Source: an uncultured Burkholderiales bacterium (GTDB taxonomy: Bacteria > Pseudomonadota > Gammaproteobacteria > Burkholderiales > Burkholderiaceae_C). From it: DNA of 64,000 nucleotides. The stretch is from contig CAIKVH010000101.1 of NCBI GenBank assembly GCA_903830725.1, positions 2,043 to 66,042 on the forward strand, read 5' to 3'. Every line of letters begins with the position of its first letter. Position 1 is the stretch's first letter. Below are positions 5,046 to 41,991 of this stretch, piece after piece. Made by a program: the position numbers and the translations under genes. The notes under the pieces were generated by a model. The model ran no database searches, was not told the origin of the DNA, and saw only the letters and a program-made list of their open reading frames with translations.

Positions 5046-8000
5046 ATGCAAAACAAACCTAACTATGGTCGTCTCTATTCTGCCTCTGACTTGGTCGCTT
5101 ATTTAGGATGTCACCACAGGACTGAGCTCGATCTAAAACGTCTGAATGGTTGGGACAAAAAACCCAAGGACGCTGATGATGCAACCCAACTCATTCAAAA
5201 CTACGGCGATAGGCATGAACGTGAATATCTACACGAGTTGATTGAGAGAGGCCTGAACGTTGTCCAGATTGACAAGGAAACGCCCCTAGAAATACAACTA
5301 CAACAAACGAATGCAGCCATTCGAGGCGGAGCAGATGTTATTTTTCAGGCAACATTGATTCAACCACCATTTATTGGATACGCTGATTTCTTTATCAAAG
5401 TCCCCGGTCAATCCAAATTAGGAGACTACCACTACGAAGTAATTGATACCAAACTTGCAAAAAGTAGTCGCGGCAAGTTTGTCATGCAACTTTGCTTATA
5501 CGCGGAAATGTTAGCCGAGATTCAAGGAGTAATGCCTAAACAATTGCACATAGTTTTAGGAAAACTTGATCCCGAGGAGGCCAGACTGAAGGGCCTAGAT
5601 CCTCATCGCTCCAACACCACAGTGCTTCAAACCCGTGATTATTACGATTACTTTAAAGTTACAAAAGAGCACTTTCTAAGCTATATAACTAAGCTCGAGC
5701 AGCAACCTCCAGTCGTTGCGACCCTCCCCGAACCCGTTAAAGCTTGTGATCTTTGCGGATGGACTGATCATTGCACTTCGTATTGGAGTGAAACAGATCA
5801 CCTGTCCCAAGTTGCTGGAATTAGAAAAGATCAAATTATTAAACTCCAATCTCAGGGCGTTCAGACGATGAAATCCTTGAGTGAATTAAATATCTCTATT
5901 CCTGGCATCTCTAATACCGTCCTTCATAGGATTAAAAAACAGGCTGAACTGCAACTTAACCCTAAAATTGCTCCTAAAACAGGTAAGGATGACCCACTTC
6001 GGTATGAATATTTACAGCCTAGTCCAACGAAGGCAACAGGCTTCGCCTTATTACCAGAACCCAACGACGGAGATCTTTATTTTGATATGGAGGGGTTTCC
6101 ATATGAGGTAGGTGGCCTTGAGTACTTGTTTGGGCTTGGATGGAGAGATCCTGCCAACCCCAAACACAAAGACGATCCTATTCAAGTCTCATTTACCCCT
6201 TTTTGGGCTCATAACCGTAAGGACGAGAAAAAAGCTTTTGAGGCCTTTATGGACCACGTCCAAGCGCATCTTAAAAAATATCCAAACGCTCATATCTACC
6301 ATTACGCACCCTACGAAAAAACAGCTATTCAACGCTTATCAAGTATTCACAATACCAGGACTGAGTTTAGAGATCAACTTCTACGTGAAGGACGTCTGGT
6401 TGACCTTTACAGAGTCGTAGCCAGTGGGCTTCAATTGGCGCTGCCTAGTTATTCCATCAAATATGTTGAGACCTACTATAGAAAGCCCCGTGAGGGTGAT
6501 GTGGTCAATGCGGGTGCAAGTATTGTTGAATACGAAAAGTTTCGCAACAGCGATAGTCAGGAGCTTCGAGACCAAATTCTCAAAGGCATCCAACAATACA
6601 ACGAGGATGATGTCGACTCAACTTGGCGACTTCATGTCTGGCTGGAGCACATTCGCCAAAACGATACACCTTACTTTGTCAAAGAAGTCGAACCCGTTCA
6701 GGAGGAAACCCAGGACGCACCTCACCTTGTAAGCGAACAACAGGTTGATGCCTGGCTCTTTGCACAGCCTGAGTCTTTAAAGATAAAGGCCACGGCTGTT
6801 GCAGAGCTTTTAAAGCTAATACTGAGTTTTTACTGGCGGGCTAAACTCCCATCCGTATGGCGTATGTTTCAAAAGCAAGAACTTGATGAAATTGAATTGA
6901 TTGAAGATAGAGAGTGCCTCGCATTGTTGGAGTACACGGGTAATTCGGAGAAAGTGGCAAATAGTGTTCGCTATTACTATACAGTTCCGGAGCAGGAATC
7001 AAAGTTATCAAATGGATCTAATGTTAAATGTCTCACAGATAATCTAGCTGCCAGTAACTTTGAATTCAATGAGGAGAAAGGAATTTGCTCATTTACTAGA
7101 TCAAATAGAAGTCCAGCTCCGCCTGCAATAGTCTCTCTCGCAATCAATGATGATGTCCCAACTAAGTCTAAACAGGACTCCATCGTTCGCTTTATTGCCT
7201 CTTTAGCTGCAAACCCTCTCCTTTCAAATCCTCGACTTGACATATTAATGCAGAACCTTCCCAGATTGTTGAATAAGAGCGAGGGGAGTTCGGTGGTTGA
7301 TGTTGCCAACACCGAGGAGCTAACCGCAGCCATCGAGAATCTTATGGACAGTTATCTCGTGATCCAGGGTCCTCCCGGAACCGGTAAGACCTTCAATGCA
7401 TCTAAAGCGATTACGCACTTACTCAAAATAGGGAAAAAAGTTGCCGTCACATCTAATAGCCACGCCGCAATCAACAATTTATTGAAAGCAACTTACGAAG
7501 AATTAAACGCTGTTGGTCTTAATAAGGTAATAGTTGCAACGAGAGAGGATAAGACTTTGCCAGAGGGTATTCAGGTTTGTTCCAGTCGACAGTTAGATTC
7601 CAGCATACATGATTTAAGCGGTGGGACAGCTTGGGCTTATTGCGTTGAAGAACAAACCGAGCAATGGGATTATTTATTTATTGATGAGGCAAGCCAAGTC
7701 TCTTTGGCAGACCTATTGGCCGCAGGATCTTGCGCCAAAAACATCATATTACTCGGCGATCAAATGCAATTGTCTCAACCCGTTCAGGGCACCCACCCTG
7801 GCAAAAGTGGATTGTCTTCATTGGATTATTTGATGAATGATCATCCAACTGTACCTAGTGATCGCGGAATATTCTTAGAGCACACTTACAGAATGCATCC
7901 GGAAATTTGCAAGCCTATATCTAGGGGTGTGTATGAGGACCGCTTGGGATCGAACCCTAACTGCGCAGTACAAAAAATAATACTAAACGAGCATGCTCAC

Positions 8001-8495
8001 TCTGCATTAAAGCCCTTTGGTATTTCCTATGTGCCGGTTGCGCACCAAGGAAGAAGTCAGGCCTCGAGCGAGGAAGCCAAGACAATTAAGGCAATTTACG
8101 AAAGTCTTTTAAAACAAAAATGGATGAATAAAGACGGAGAAACTCAACCGATCACTGAAAAAGACATTTTGATTGTTGCTCCCTATAATGCTCAACGAAT
8201 AGAGCTGAGAAAAGAATTAGGTGAGCTAGCCCGTATCGGCACCGTTGATAAATTTCAAGGCCAAGAGGCTGCGGTTGCAATTTTCTCCATGACCTCCTCA
8301 GATAGAGAAAATATTCCAAGGGGACTCGACTTTTTGTTCAGTAAAAATAGGCTCAATGTTGCCCTATCTAGAGCCAAGTGTTTAGCTCTTATGGTAGCTT
8401 CGCCAGAGTTAGAACAAATTGAATGCGATAAGGTTGATGATATGAAACTACTCAATTTTTACACTCAAATCATCAATGCATCTACTCATACTTAA
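5046..8495 (+). CDS. TM0106-family RecB/Cas4-like nuclease fused to RNase H-like domain and UPF1/DNA2-like SF1 helicase
   Basis: PD-(D/E)xK motif GYADFFIK...VIDTKLA; Cys pattern C20...CDLCGWTDHC; HhH-like DHLSQVAGI; RNase H-like YFDMEG/YHYAPYE/VDLY/YNEDDV; helicase motifs QGPPGTGKT, DEASQ, LGDQMQL, YRMHPEI, APYNAQ, TVDKFQGQE, RLNVALSRAK. Confidence 0.92.
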   Translation: MQNKPNYGRLYSASDLVAYLGCHHRTELDLKRLNGWDKKPKDADDATQLIQNYGDRHEREYLHELIERGLNVVQIDKETPLEIQLQQTNAAIRGGADVIFQATLIQPPFIGYADFFIKVPGQSKLGDYHYEVIDTKLAKSSRGKFVMQLCLYAEMLAEIQGVMPKQLHIVLGKLDPEEARLKGLDPHRSNTTVLQTRDYYDYFKVTKEHFLSYITKLEQQPPVVATLPEPVKACDLCGWTDHCTSYWSETDHLSQVAGIRKDQIIKLQSQGVQTMKSLSELNISIPGISNTVLHRIKKQAELQLNPKIAPKTGKDDPLRYEYLQPSPTKATGFALLPEPNDGDLYFDMEGFPYEVGGLEYLFGLGWRDPANPKHKDDPIQVSFTPFWAHNRKDEKKAFEAFMDHVQAHLKKYPNAHIYHYAPYEKTAIQRLSSIHNTRTEFRDQLLREGRLVDLYRVVASGLQLALPSYSIKYVETYYRKPREGDVVNAGASIVEYEKFRNSDSQELRDQILKGIQQYNEDDVDSTWRLHVWLEHIRQNDTPYFVKEVEPVQEETQDAPHLVSEQQVDAWLFAQPESLKIKATAVAELLKLILSFYWRAKLPSVWRMFQKQELDEIELIEDRECLALLEYTGNSEKVANSVRYYYTVPEQESKLSNGSNVKCLTDNLAASNFEFNEEKGICSFTRSNRSPAPPAIVSLAINDDVPTKSKQDSIVRFIASLAANPLLSNPRLDILMQNLPRLLNKSEGSSVVDVANTEELTAAIENLMDSYLVIQGPPGTGKTFNASKAITHLLKIGKKVAVTSNSHAAINNLLKATYEELNAVGLNKVIVATREDKTLPEGIQVCSSRQLDSSIHDLSGGTAWAYCVEEQTEQWDYLFIDEASQVSLADLLAAGSCAKNIILLGDQMQLSQPVQGTHPGKSGLSSLDYLMNDHPTVPSDRGIFLEHTYRMHPEICKPISRGVYEDRLGSNPNCAVQKIILNEHAHSALKPFGISYVPVAHQGRSQASSEEAKTIKAIYESLLKQKWMNKDGETQPITEKDILIVAPYNAQRIELRKELGELARIGTVDKFQGQEAAVAIFSMTSSDRENIPRGLDFLFSKNRLNVALSRAKCLALMVASPELEQIECDKVDDMKLLNFYTQIINASTHT

Positions 8496-8500
8496 AAATA

Positions 8501-9157
8501 ATGCTCAATACCACCTACTTTAAGAGCTGTCTTATTGGCATTATTTTGCTTATCACCAACTTAGCTCCCTGCTACTCAGCAAGTTTCAAGTGTGATTCCC
8601 ATCTTTCTGAGGCAGAGACACTGGTTTGCACGGACCGAGAACTGTCCGAAAAAGATTCCAATATGGCAGTTGTCTACAAAAAGCTCTTGAAAAGAGGTTT
8701 TTATGGGGAGTCCAAAAATGCGTTCAAGACGGAGCAACTTGCTTGGATTAAAACCAGAAACGCCTGTAAATCCAGCGTTTGTTTAAACGATATCTATGAT
8801 GAAAGAATTCAAATATTGGCTGAATACATGAAGCAGCCCTACGAAGTTAAGGTCTTACCCCCTGTTTGCAGTAAAACCTTTATCAGTGAAATTAGCGCTC
8901 GCCTGCCCTCTGAAGATCCCCAAACGAGAGGAACACGAATTAGCTACGCAAACGGATTGGGCGGGGTTTCCTATGACTATGTTGCTTCCATCTGGGATCG
9001 TTCGAGAATCAAAGATCCGGTACGGGTATGTCTTATCGCAAAGTATCTAAACTGTCCCAAAGGGGATGATCGTGGCAAAACCTTTGAAGGTACGAATTTA
9101 AGAACAGGTGAAAAATGGAAACTGAGTGATTCACAACACATTTGTAGTGGTGCTTAA
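8501..9157 (+). CDS. Secreted LprI (DUF1311)-like protein with Cys-rich C-terminal domain
   Basis: Signal peptide, then ASFKC...ETLVCTDRELSEKD...QLAWIKTRNAC...CLNDIYDERI (LprI pattern); C-terminus CPKGDDRG...NLRTG...HICSGA. Confidence 0.75.
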   Translation: MLNTTYFKSCLIGIILLITNLAPCYSASFKCDSHLSEAETLVCTDRELSEKDSNMAVVYKKLLKRGFYGESKNAFKTEQLAWIKTRNACKSSVCLNDIYDERIQILAEYMKQPYEVKVLPPVCSKTFISEISARLPSEDPQTRGTRISYANGLGGVSYDYVASIWDRSRIKDPVRVCLIAKYLNCPKGDDRGKTFEGTNLRTGEKWKLSDSQHICSGA

Positions 9158-39808: not shown

Positions 39809-40366
39809 TTGAAAGTCTTAAAGCTGTCTGCCCAGGGGTTGCCGCAATCTTGGATTTCCCTTGAACAAGCTGTTATTCATTACGCAGCTGAGGAGGTTCG
39901 TTGGGAGGCAGGCGCTCAAGTCGCCGTGTTCAGGGGCGGACACAACGCCATAACGGGCATCCAATCGACTATAGTAGTCAACAGCATTATTGGTACAAAG
40001 GGGGTTCCTAAGATCAACCCTTTTGAGCTCAAACCAGGACTCACCAACAGCAAACTCTTTGCTAGAGACCAAAATCTATGTGCTTACTGCGGTGACCAGT
40101 TTCACGAAACCGAGTTGACCCGCGAGCACATCATTCCATTTGGACAGCAAGGCTCGGACCATTGGATGAATGTGGTGACAGCTTGCAAATCTTGCAACCA
40201 CAGGAAAGGCAACCGCACACCAGAGCAGGCCAGGATGCCCCTGCTTTATGCGCCCTACAGTCCAAGTTTGTGGGAGGACTTTATCCTGCGCAACAGAAGG
40301 ATCTTGTCGGACCAAATGGATTTCTTAACTGCGCACTTACCCAGAACATCTCGCTTCTTTATTTAA
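39809..40366 (+). CDS. HNH endonuclease (McrA-like)
   Basis: RDQNLCAYCG...TREHIIP...NVVTACKSCNHRKGNRTP; TTG start. Confidence 0.9.
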   Translation: MKVLKLSAQGLPQSWISLEQAVIHYAAEEVRWEAGAQVAVFRGGHNAITGIQSTIVVNSIIGTKGVPKINPFELKPGLTNSKLFARDQNLCAYCGDQFHETELTREHIIPFGQQGSDHWMNVVTACKSCNHRKGNRTPEQARMPLLYAPYSPSLWEDFILRNRRILSDQMDFLTAHLPRTSRFFI

Positions 40367-40398: not shown

Positions 40399-41001
40399 CT
40401 ACTGTACATTCTCTAGCCCAAGCAACCTCTCAATCGCTTTGGGATAAATAATATGTTCTTGGCTTAGCACTCTTGCGGCAAGCGTTTGCGCGGTATCGCC
40501 CGCTAGCACGGGCACTATTGCTTGATCAAGGATTGGGCCGTGGTCCAACTCTGCTGTTACGCGGTGCACGGTTACGCCTGCAAATTTACAACCCATCTCA
40601 ATTGCCCGCGCGTGCGTGTGTAACCCTGTAAATGCGGGCAATAAAGAGGGATGGATGTTAATGAGTCGTCCCGCGTAATGCTCTACAAAGTGGGGAGTCA
40701 GAATTCTCATAAAGCCGGCCAATACGACTAAATAGGGAGTGTGTTGATCAATAACTTTGATCAACTCTTGGTCAAAGGCTAGCCTCGGATTTTCTTCTGA
40801 TTTGTAGTTTGTATGTGCAACTACACAGGTGTCAACGCCAAAGTCTTTTGCGATCTGGAGTCCTTTCGCGTCCTCGGTGTTGCTGATAACGCAGGTAACT
40901 TCTGCGTTAAATCTTTCACACCATCCTCGCTCCTTGGAGGATTTCAAAATAGCCTGCATGTTGGAGCCACCGCCGGAGATCAGAATTACAATTTTTTTCA
41001 T
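40399..41001 (-). CDS. purN: Phosphoribosylglycinamide formyltransferase
   Basis: ILISGGGSNMQAI, VVLAGFMRIL, INIHPSLLP, VTAELDHGPI, EHIIYP. Confidence 0.97.
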   Translation of the reverse strand: MKKIVILISGGGSNMQAILKSSKERGWCERFNAEVTCVISNTEDAKGLQIAKDFGVDTCVVAHTNYKSEENPRLAFDQELIKVIDQHTPYLVVLAGFMRILTPHFVEHYAGRLINIHPSLLPAFTGLHTHARAIEMGCKFAGVTVHRVTAELDHGPILDQAIVPVLAGDTAQTLAARVLSQEHIIYPKAIERLLGLENVQ

Positions 41002-41028
41002 TTAAAAATTTCGGGGCTCCGTATTCGG

Positions 41029-41214
41029 TTATTGATCAATTGGTAAATCTTTGATTAACTGCTGGTTGCGCCCAAACCCAACTAAGCGAGCGCTTAGGCA
41101 ACTAGGGCAGGTAGTTGGATTGACGACTGAATTCGCATAGATGTGGTAATCGTGTTCGTCATCTTCAACGCGTTCAACATTGAGCCGCGAAAGATTCAAG
41201 ATATTGGTAGGCAT
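41029..41214 (-). pseudogene. Truncated ISL3 transposase (N-terminal zinc-ribbon only)
   Basis: MPTNILNL...CPSC...GFGRNQQLIKDLPI is a zf-ISL3-type N-terminus; the frame runs into the TIR and stops after 61 codons. Confidence 0.85.
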
Positions 41215-41265
41215 GTCTAGACGACTAATGCCTCTACTTTTCTAATTGCAGCAGGTATCGGCTTT

Positions 41266-41520
41266 TCAACGCAATACCCATTCACCTTGGGACTTAATCG
41301 CTTGGTACATGGCATCAGGCGCTAGATCTAAGTCTCCAGGCCACGTAACAGCACCACCATCGACGTGCGCTTGCTGAAAAACAATGGGGTCTTTTAAGGC
41401 TGCAAATACGCCTGTCAAGTGACTTGCTTCAAACTGAACCTTACCCTCGGTGCCGTCTGCAAATTGGACTCCTAGGGCCAATGGCGCAACAGCTTTAACT
41501 TCTATAACGTCCCATTTCAT
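41266..41520 (-). CDS. DUF2442-like protein (predicted antitoxin partner)
   Basis: VIEVKAV...LGVQFADG...F.ALKDP.VF......GAVTWPGDLDLAPDAMY pattern; SD GAGGT 5 nt before ATG 41520. Confidence 0.85.
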   Translation of the reverse strand: MKWDVIEVKAVAPLALGVQFADGTEGKVQFEASHLTGVFAALKDPIVFQQAHVDGGAVTWPGDLDLAPDAMYQAIKSQGEWVLR

Positions 41521-41528
41521 ATTCGACC

Positions 41529-41796
41529 TCACTTTAAAGGAGCAATCGGTTTAGGCTGCTGTTTTTCCATGCACAGTCGCCAGTCTTCAAGCAGCTCTTG
41601 TTGATGCAATTCAGCCCAATCGAGAACAAGTTCTTGCGCTCGACGAGGAAGCTCGCCACTTGAGATAGAGAGCAATTGGATATCAACCGTGGCCTTGTAT
41701 TCTGTATTCTGCATACTGCACATGAAAGTGCGCAGGGGCATGATCGTTGAAGTACATCCGAATCAGGATGCCATAAAAAGTGCTGATGGTTGGCAT
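41529..41796 (-). pseudogene. DUF4160-like protein, frameshifted by a 7-bp duplication
   Basis: ATG 41796 gives MPTISTFYGILIRMYFNDHAPAHFHVQYAEY. The remainder, KATVDIQ...GELPRRAQELVLDWAELHQQELLEDW, is in another frame. GTATTCT is duplicated at 41697-41710; removing one copy restores an 86-aa ORF. Confidence 0.88.
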
Positions 41797-41948
41797 AAAT
41801 AAACAGTGAATTACGAAGTCATGTTACTCAAACTGGCGCCGACTGTCAACAACGAAATGCATTTTATGGATAGCAAAGCAGGCAATGCAAAAGTGCCTCA
41901 ATCAACAACCGAATACGGATACCCAAAATTTCTTTATAACCGCAAGCA

Positions 41949-41991
41949 AAAGACAACTCAAACACAACTCAAACACAACTCAAAGACACTC
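41949..41991. repeat. 11-bp tandem repeat, about 4 copies (AAA[G/C]ACAACTC)
   Basis: Read directly, just outside the IS end. Confidence 0.85.

Follow-up and report, generated by a model that had tools for sequence, protein, structure and literature searches.

A 912-bp ISL3-type element upstream of purN in an uncultured Burkholderiales bacterium is likely a decaying relic of a cargo-carrying insertion sequence

Introduction

Directly upstream of the purN gene, in a 64,000-nucleotide stretch of DNA from an uncultured Burkholderiales bacterium (positions 2,043 to 66,042 of contig CAIKVH010000101.1, assembly GCA_903830725.1; the whole stretch is hereafter referred to as the window), lies a 912-bp element that is bounded by terminal inverted repeats (TIRs) and carries a toxin-antitoxin-like (TA-like) gene pair next to the stump of a transposase gene (tnpA). 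This locus raises the question of whether such a short unit still moves with the help of a transposase supplied in trans, or was left behind where a longer insertion sequence (IS) once inserted. An initial annotation, made from the sequence of the window, had proposed a mobilisable unit resembling a miniature inverted-repeat transposable element (MITE) that spreads a TA module. The comparison with related loci presented here makes it likely that the element is a fixed, vertically inherited and non-autonomous remnant, now in decay, of a passenger-bearing ISL3 element (“transporter IS”) that has yet to be described.

ISL3 elements with passenger genes, 24-bp inverted repeats and 8-bp direct repeats are established (PMC6305408, PMC4447125), and such elements are thought to move via circular intermediates in a copy-out-paste-in manner (bioRxiv 10.1101/2023.06.07.543989). 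TA pairs embedded in transposons have been described for the Tn3 family (Lima-Mendez et al. 2020, PMC7157771). Literature searches yielded no paper on ISL3 elements with DUF4160/DUF2442, with AcrVA2 or with TA cargo.

Relatives of the element were sought in a species-genome scan with the DUF2442 protein as query (one genome for each of 185,579 species, returning 80 loci), in JGI metagenome contigs (using a degenerate TIR pattern), in 20 public lake and freshwater sequencing runs, and by exact-protein look-ups.

Boundaries and gene content of the element

The element spans positions 41013-41924 of the window and is bracketed by a perfect 8-bp target-site duplication, AAAATTTC, the left copy of which (41005-41012) lies 3 nt upstream of the purN start codon and the right copy at 41925-41932. 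Its two 24-bp ends, being the transposase-distal inverted repeat (IRR, GGGGCTCCGTATTCGGTTATTGAT, 41013-41036, minus strand) and the cargo-proximal inverted repeat (IRL, GGGTATCCGTATTCGGTTGTTGAT, the reverse complement of 41901-41924, minus strand), are identical at 21 of 24 positions, so that the length, repeats and duplication reported in the initial annotation hold. When the degenerate TIR pattern was run over the 64 kb with up to 3 mismatches allowed, the IRR and IRL were the two matches obtained (0.00 expected from 100 shuffles), and no other TIR was found in the window, which is the part of the host genome covered. The purN gene itself (phosphoribosylglycinamide formyltransferase, 40399-41001, minus strand) starts 11 nt past the tip of the IRR and is co-oriented with the genes of the element.

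All coding content of the element lies on the minus strand in the order DUF4160, DUF2442 and tnpA fragment, and an open reading frame (ORF) list drawn up at 60 aa does show the element, which had earlier been described as invisible among the ORFs. The G+C content of the element (46.4%) is similar to that of the window (45.5%), and Rfam yielded no match in the element region or in the window as a whole. A sigma-70-like promoter (TTGACA-17-TAACAT, 41849-41821, minus strand), which agrees with the consensus at 10 of 12 positions, is located upstream of the DUF4160 gene and points towards the DUF4160 gene, the DUF2442 gene, the tnpA fragment and purN. As judged from its sequence and position, this promoter is predicted to drive the cargo and might read through into purN.

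The truncated tnpA (41214->41029, minus strand) is a 61-codon ORF in which the first 59 codons of an ISL3 transposase run into the IRR, where the frame stops. Of the zinc ribbon the fragment keeps just the first CxxC motif, and by itself it matched Zn_ribbon_ISL3 weakly (20.5 bits, below the cut-off of 25.5), while an exact look-up of the 61-aa fragment returned no record. However, it is identical at 58 of 59 positions to the N-terminus of a 459-aa transposase encoded at locus L001, a metagenome-assembled genome (MAG) of an uncultured Burkholderiales bacterium, and this transposase bears all three domains, DDE_Tnp_ISL3 (PF01610, 6.9e-63), Zn_ribbon_ISL3 (PF14690, 1.6e-12) and HTH_Tnp_ISL3 (PF13542, 5.2e-08). 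This identity settles the ISL3 assignment of the window fragment, in line with the TIRs and the AT-rich 8-bp duplication. Because the catalytic domain is missing, the window copy is a derivative of an ISL3 element, and the deletion of tnpA makes it non-autonomous, as had been annotated.

Full-length relatives and internal deletions

Among the 80 loci of the species-genome scan, L001 was the only one with the same TIRs on both sides. The L001 element (5604-8697; 3,094 bp) consists of an IRL, a DUF4160 gene, a DUF2442 gene, a 217-aa ORF, the 459-aa transposase gene and an IRR. In a BLASTN comparison the window element corresponded to L001 segments [5604-6267], [7244-7463] and [8672-8697], with 92% and 95% identity. 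This mosaic indicates that, relative to the full-length element, the window copy is missing two internal blocks, which we refer to as deletion 1 and deletion 2.

Deletion 1 amounts to ca. 976 bp and takes out the 217-aa ORF of the 3.1-kb form, its junction (at ca. 41254-41258) lying between the imperfect direct repeats ATGCCGATACC and ATGC(G/A)ATACC. The missing ORF matched the C-terminal domain of the anti-CRISPR protein AcrVA2 in a PDB sequence search (PDB 7CI1, E=9.6e-11) and is assigned to PF26125 (AcrVA2-like) in precomputed tables, whereas the copy of Pfam searched here gave no match. The last 13 codons of this AcrVA2-like gene (IPAAIRKVEALVV*) remain in the window as a relic at 41217-41258 on the minus strand. 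We considered that the 976-bp difference could represent a gain in the long form, but this was disfavoured, given these 13 leftover codons and the position of the junction between direct repeats. The AcrVA2-like gene itself is located at 6632-7285 in L001 and at 2899-3498 in L095, with its stop codon 2-3 nt from the start of tnpA, which points to an ISL3 element as the carrier of an anti-CRISPR-like gene.

Deletion 2 removes 1,208 bp relative to L001, from codon 60 of tnpA to 4 bp past its stop codon. Its junction (41039/41038; …TTACCAAT|TGATCAA…) shows no microhomology and ends 2 bp from the inner edge of the IRR, so that the transposase is indeed cut to 59 codons and fused to the TIR as first described, with a 2-bp spacing.

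Full-length forms, which the initial annotation had advised looking for as a parent, were retrieved in two size classes. The 3.1-kb form was found at the L001 site in L099 and in X2-X4, X21 and X22, and a 3.1-kb lineage with a 90%-identical TnpA (L095-L098) occupies two further sites. A 2,105-bp form has deletion 1, an intact tnpA and no AcrVA2-like gene; it appeared as a stand-alone unitig breaking at both TIR ends in run X6 and with flanking sequence in X5. In X11, X14 and X22, moreover, the sequence starting from 41039 runs into …HGKRVGIYF…, corresponding to an intact tnpA. A complete but more distant cousin of 2,054 bp (L082; ca. 74% nucleotide identity) carries intact genes of 86, 84 and 448 aa and wholly lacks the AcrVA2-like gene. 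TIRs of the same type bound L001, L082, L095, L102 and L092.

The octamers flanking L082 do not form a matching duplication (GTTATATA at 207-214 vs ATTCTTTC at 2269-2276), suggesting either recombination between copies or an old insertion. Another ISL3-type element of ca. 4.6 kb (L083 7927-7950 / L084 348-4927) has a near-identical IRL, GGGTATCCGTATTCGGTTATTGAA, and a more diverged IRR; GAAATGGG flanks its left end in L083 and its right end in L084.

Occurrence of the deleted form

The junction of deletion 2 was always accompanied by the purN flank, namely in ENA assembly ERZ1426842, in L081 (Logan ERR4194643), L093 (ERZ27313546) and L094 (ERZ18660809), and in runs X1-X3 and X10. The 912-bp mini form is thus confined to the purN-rsmB site in no fewer than five independent assemblies or runs, with the same junctions at the same site in several lakes and studies, and constitutes a single, vertically inherited locus. 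One of these contigs, the 68-kb L093, shares 99.7% identity with the window along 7.2 kb. The forms with an intact tnpA (2.1 kb and 3.1 kb), in contrast, occupy the other seven sites seen. No second site with the tnpA deletion was found in the 80 species-scan loci, the JGI contigs (where the degenerate TIR pattern retrieved 3 loci and no mini copy), the 20 runs or the remainder of the window. Copies of the same form with different target duplications, as expected of the proposed MITE-like unit, were therefore absent at other loci in the sources searched, and the pattern of a mini form at purN and full-length forms elsewhere is the one that the initial annotation itself had associated with a deletion after insertion.

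The purN-site copies also share changes in the IRR. In all of them positions 4-5 of this repeat read GC instead of TA, giving a GGGGC tip, as opposed to GGGTA in the IRRs of L001 and of the 2.1-kb form. The A at 41031, on the other hand, is private to the window, where it makes the TAA stop inside the IRR; every contig covering that base (runs X1-X3 and X10) has a G, and the TIRs of the other purN-site strains match at 22 of 24 positions. In these other strains the leftover tnpA ORF extends to 70 aa and its TAA stop directly abuts the purN ATG.

Relatives with 94% and 83% identical PurN proteins have no insertion, as judged from spacer length: the rsmB-purN spacer is 1,305 bp in the window (385 bp once the 920 bp of element and duplication are taken off), 349 bp beside the 94%-identical PurN and 403 bp beside the 83%-identical ones. 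An empty-site allele, which the initial annotation had advised looking for, was also sought, and no joint skipping the 920 bp occurred in the 20 runs compared with the region; likewise, the L001 flanks, searched in the window as an empty site, gave no match. Two joints in X1 (41066>42024 and 41578>41812) were not accepted as deletion alleles: their sides measure 27-30 nt and both fall at the ends of unitigs, and probably they are artefacts of the de Bruijn graph.

Toxin-antitoxin cargo and its decay

The two cargo genes resemble DhiTA of Dickeya dadantii 3937, in which DUF4160 and DUF2442 proteins constitute a validated, toxin-first type II TA system (PMC8198452). Growth inhibition by the toxin and its neutralisation by the antitoxin have been shown for the Dickeya pair only (PMC8198452), and DUF4160 has also been noted among the effector domains of Menshen systems (PMC12065111). 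The putative toxin gene of the window (dhiT-like, 41796->41529, minus strand) is a pseudogene: a 7-bp stretch (AGAATAC on the minus strand) stands twice in perfect tandem at 41697-41710 and breaks the frame, a detail that the initial annotation had missed. With one 7-bp copy removed, the read-through protein matched PF13711 (DUF4160; E=6.6e-22) and aligned end to end with the NCBIfam model toxin_DhiT (E=4.4e-23), at 81.7 bits vs an equivalog cut-off of 100. The putative antitoxin gene (dhiA-like, 41520->41266, minus strand), located 8 nt further on the same strand, is intact and encodes an 84-aa DUF2442 protein (PF10387, E=2.3e-12) that scored weakly against antoxin_DhiA (19.1 bits vs a cut-off of 200, the first 71 of 160 model positions being aligned). 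Because of these scores below the cut-offs and the partial coverage of the DhiA model, we refer to the pair as DhiTA-like rather than DhiTA. PADLOC yielded nothing for the cargo proteins, and PDB sequence searches no match for DhiT or DhiA.

The gene order (DUF4160 and then DUF2442, toxin first in one operon) is that of the Dickeya system. The window antitoxin differs in being 84 aa long against a model of 160 positions, without the extra C-terminal part, and the putative toxin gene of the window differs in being frameshifted. The DUF4160-like and DUF2442-like pair seen in the initial annotation is therefore borne out as a passenger pair of the DhiT/DhiA type, but the window cargo is not a working TA module since its toxin gene is broken.

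Across intact element lineages, dN/dS ratios (non-synonymous to synonymous substitution rates) ranged from 0.01 to 0.05 for dhiT and from 0.04 to 0.14 for dhiA. This strong purifying selection indicates that the DhiT/DhiA-like pair is a maintained part of active elements, and the DUF4160 gene is intact in L094, L099, L095 and L082.

The four purN-site alleles compared (window, L093, L094 and L081) tell a different story for the resident copies. The 7-bp duplication in dhiT marks the window allele and is absent from every run with a contig covering 41696. In L093 (at about 3260) and run X1 this duplication is missing, but a stretch of five T (T5) has gained one T and there is a T>A change close to codon 8. 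The 86-aa dhiT of L094 is intact, and L081 carries two non-synonymous changes in its DUF2442 gene. At the L001 site, finally, the DUF4160 gene of L001 contains a TGA nonsense codon (at about 5869), whereas that of L099 is intact. In resident copies the toxin gene has thus been knocked out on at least three occasions, in contrast to the strong constraint across lineages.

Interpretation of the purN-site copy

In the relic reading that we favour, a copy of ca. 2.1 kb (IRL, promoter, dhiT, dhiA, tnpA and IRR) would have inserted into AAAATTTC 3 nt upstream of purN. The duplication of the octamer left by this insertion is plainly present, and the 2.1-kb form is presumably the immediate parent. The 1,208-bp deletion then removed tnpA, thereby ending autonomy and fusing the leftover ORF across the IRR to the start codon of purN. 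From that point on the truncated copy has been inherited vertically, and its toxin gene is in the course of being lost now that no transposition maintains the pair. The relic itself is probably neutral or mildly useful.

A number of points weigh against this reading. Deletion 2 leaves the IRR exactly intact, which is what selection for mobility would give, but which chance could also have produced. Beyond the 64 kb of the window, the host genome could harbour another mini copy or a full-length helper, and rare transposed copies could have been missed because Logan contigs drop rare variants. No empty site resolved to the base, with AAAATTTC present once, was recovered from the insertion-free relatives: the contig of the 94% relative has no DNA on file, and the 83% relatives, though syntenic, have spacers that are unalignable at the insertion point. 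The 7-bp duplication in dhiT might conceivably stem from a misassembly of the original record.

Three other explanations can be held against the same data. Because both TIRs are present, mobilisation of the 912-bp unit in trans is physically possible, and the precise end of the tnpA deletion at the inner edge of the IRR, the retention of both TIRs (21/24 in the window and 22/24 in other strains) and the presence of near-identical full-length elements in the same lake metagenomes (X2-X4 and X21; 95% identity over the 5′ end of tnpA) would all suit an active MITE-like or mini transporter element that is moved by full-length ISL3 copies and spreads the TA pair. We nevertheless regard this as very improbable. 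The mini form is present at one locus in all of the independent assemblies and runs that contain it, with no second site in the sources searched; two strains already have a broken toxin gene in this cargo; and 912 bp with genes is neither the size nor the content of a MITE. The two substitutions that turn the IRR tip from GGGTA into GGGGC argue in the same direction, and may further lower the chance of trans-mobilisation. The window element does resemble bacterial MITEs and internally deleted IS in having TIRs and a target-site duplication without a functional transposase, as the result of an internal deletion of a full-length IS, but it differs from MITEs in being gene-bearing and restricted to a single locus, with no amplification seen. 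That the element is an assembly artefact or chimera, not truly situated at the purN locus, has virtually nothing to recommend it beyond the general risk of metagenome-derived sequence, as ERZ1426842, ERZ27313546, ERZ18660809 and Logan ERR4194643, stemming from different studies, reproduce both junctions with purN and the rsmB-side flank.

Somewhat less improbable, though still unlikely, is that the relic has been domesticated, either with the host using the element promoter and the fused ORF for purN, or with DhiA protecting against incoming DhiT (anti-addiction). Placed 3 nt from the purN ATG and in the same orientation, the element has a strong promoter-like site, with a single weak terminator-like hairpin between this promoter and purN (41097-41082; 6 pairs, 3 of them G-C; inside the tnpA fragment), and the abutment of the 70-aa leftover ORF and purN in other strains would fit such a use. 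Protection by the antitoxin would accord with the antitoxin ORF being intact in all four alleles while the toxin was broken twice independently, and with the circulation of full-length, toxin-bearing copies in the same communities. However, among strains that are ca. 99.7% identical an intact 84-codon ORF is expected by chance, and L081 already has its two non-synonymous changes in dhiA. Moreover, the window allele loses the abutment of ORF and purN through its earlier TAA, and the native purN promoter region is still present upstream, reading in the same direction. We therefore retain the relic reading, under which the window locus is one more dead IS copy whose dhiT and tnpA merit annotation as pseudogenes. 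The series from 3.1 kb over 2.1 kb to 0.9 kb, together with three independent toxin knock-outs, shows how cargo decays after its carrier has become immobilised.

Cargo of related ISL3 elements

More interesting than the locus itself is the cargo pattern of the family, which apparently is an undescribed ISL3 transporter IS that moves a DhiTA-like pair, accompanied by an anti-CRISPR-like gene in the long form, among freshwater Burkholderiales. Its named passenger-carrying kin are ISPpu12/ISPpu12a (3,372 bp, with a CzcD module) and ISPst2 (2,985 bp, with ArsR plus a permease) (PMC4447125, PMC6305408). The relatives of the window element share with these an ISL3 DDE transposase with an N-terminal zinc ribbon and helix-turn-helix, TIRs of ca. 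24 bp starting with GG, an 8-bp target duplication and passengers within the inverted repeats, which in the window relatives are co-oriented with and upstream of tnpA. In contrast to ISPpu12 and ISPst2, the cargo consists of DUF4160/DUF2442 (plus the AcrVA2-like gene in the long form) instead of metal or transport genes, and the window copy has lost tnpA.

Transposases with 58-81% identity are preceded by other TA or defence modules, inside the TIRs where this was checked. L100 (321-955) has an MNT/HepT cargo next to an 81%-identical TnpA, and a Rhodanobacter plasmid (L102, 20-3634) carries a 3,615-bp element with perfect 24-bp TIRs, MNT/DUF86 and three further ORFs. In the plasmid collection the closest annotated transposases reach only 58-67% identity. 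On the Pseudomonas putida plasmid pKF715A (L092, 1234-3928), the 2,695-bp element contains an AbiEii toxin gene. In other plasmid relatives (L090, L091, L101, L103 and L104) genes for type ISP restriction-modification, N6-methylase, pRiA4b-ORF3 or DUF5710 abut tnpA, and the position of the AcrVA2-like gene is taken by a “pRiA4b ORF-3 family” gene in a related element on an Aeromonas plasmid. Judging from these arrangements, the ISL3 clade looks as if it has an exchangeable cargo slot upstream of tnpA, for which the literature searches gave no earlier description.

This parallels the Tn3 family, where a type II TA pair likewise sits in the transposition unit next to the transposase gene, is kept across diverged elements under purifying selection, and where different TA families occur at one position in related elements (compare MNT/HepT in L100 and L102 with AbiEii in L092). 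Tn3 transposons differ in forming replicative cointegrates that are processed by a resolvase, and no res site comes into play in the window element. The TA and defence cargo of these ISL3 elements extends the notion of TA as part of the transposition module from Tn3 to ISL3. As a speculative extension, which we put forward with considerable reserve, the exchangeable slot of the clade with TIRs GGGTATCCG… may often be translationally coupled to tnpA, and its TA, restriction-modification and anti-defence modules may belong integrally to the transposition unit and serve in addiction or regulation, as has been proposed for Tn3, with relics perhaps being kept when the host co-opts the orphan antitoxin and outward promoter for immunity to incoming copies or for purN.

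Target sequences and neighbourhood

The octamer AAAATTTC adjoins a TIR at four of the eight independent sites of the IS lineage (window, L001, X5 and X9), in either orientation. It could have been taken for element sequence, a reading that was discarded: between the window and L001 it changes orientation with respect to the element, which identifies it as target sequence, and other sites have other octamers, being AAAATTTG in X14, AAAAAGTT in X19, GTTTTTTA in X21 and CTAATTAG in X22. The duplications of the relatives read AAAATTTC in L001 (5596-5603 and 8698-8705), GAAAAAAA in L095, AAAAAAAC in L102 and TGTTTTTC in L092. In the window AAAATTTC occurs 8 times, two of which are the duplication, with ca. 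3.3 occurrences expected from base composition. The AT-rich 8-bp target is as expected of ISL3, and AAAATTTC is a recurrent hot octamer rather than an obligatory one. The flank of X19 beyond 41928 reads AGTTCAAGGATACCCAAAG and contains a second TIR-tip-like motif, GGATACCC, 10 nt past the end, which may be a nested or tandem end.

Just outside the element, the purN-rsmB spacer contains an 11-bp microsatellite (AAAGACAACTC, 3.6 copies, 41949-41988) that is polymorphic, runs X2, X4 and X10 being one unit shorter. On the other side of purN, between purN and ribF, lies a gene for a 185-aa HNH endonuclease (39809-40366), which is kept in the 83% relatives; the 94% relative has an unrelated 114-aa ORF in its position.

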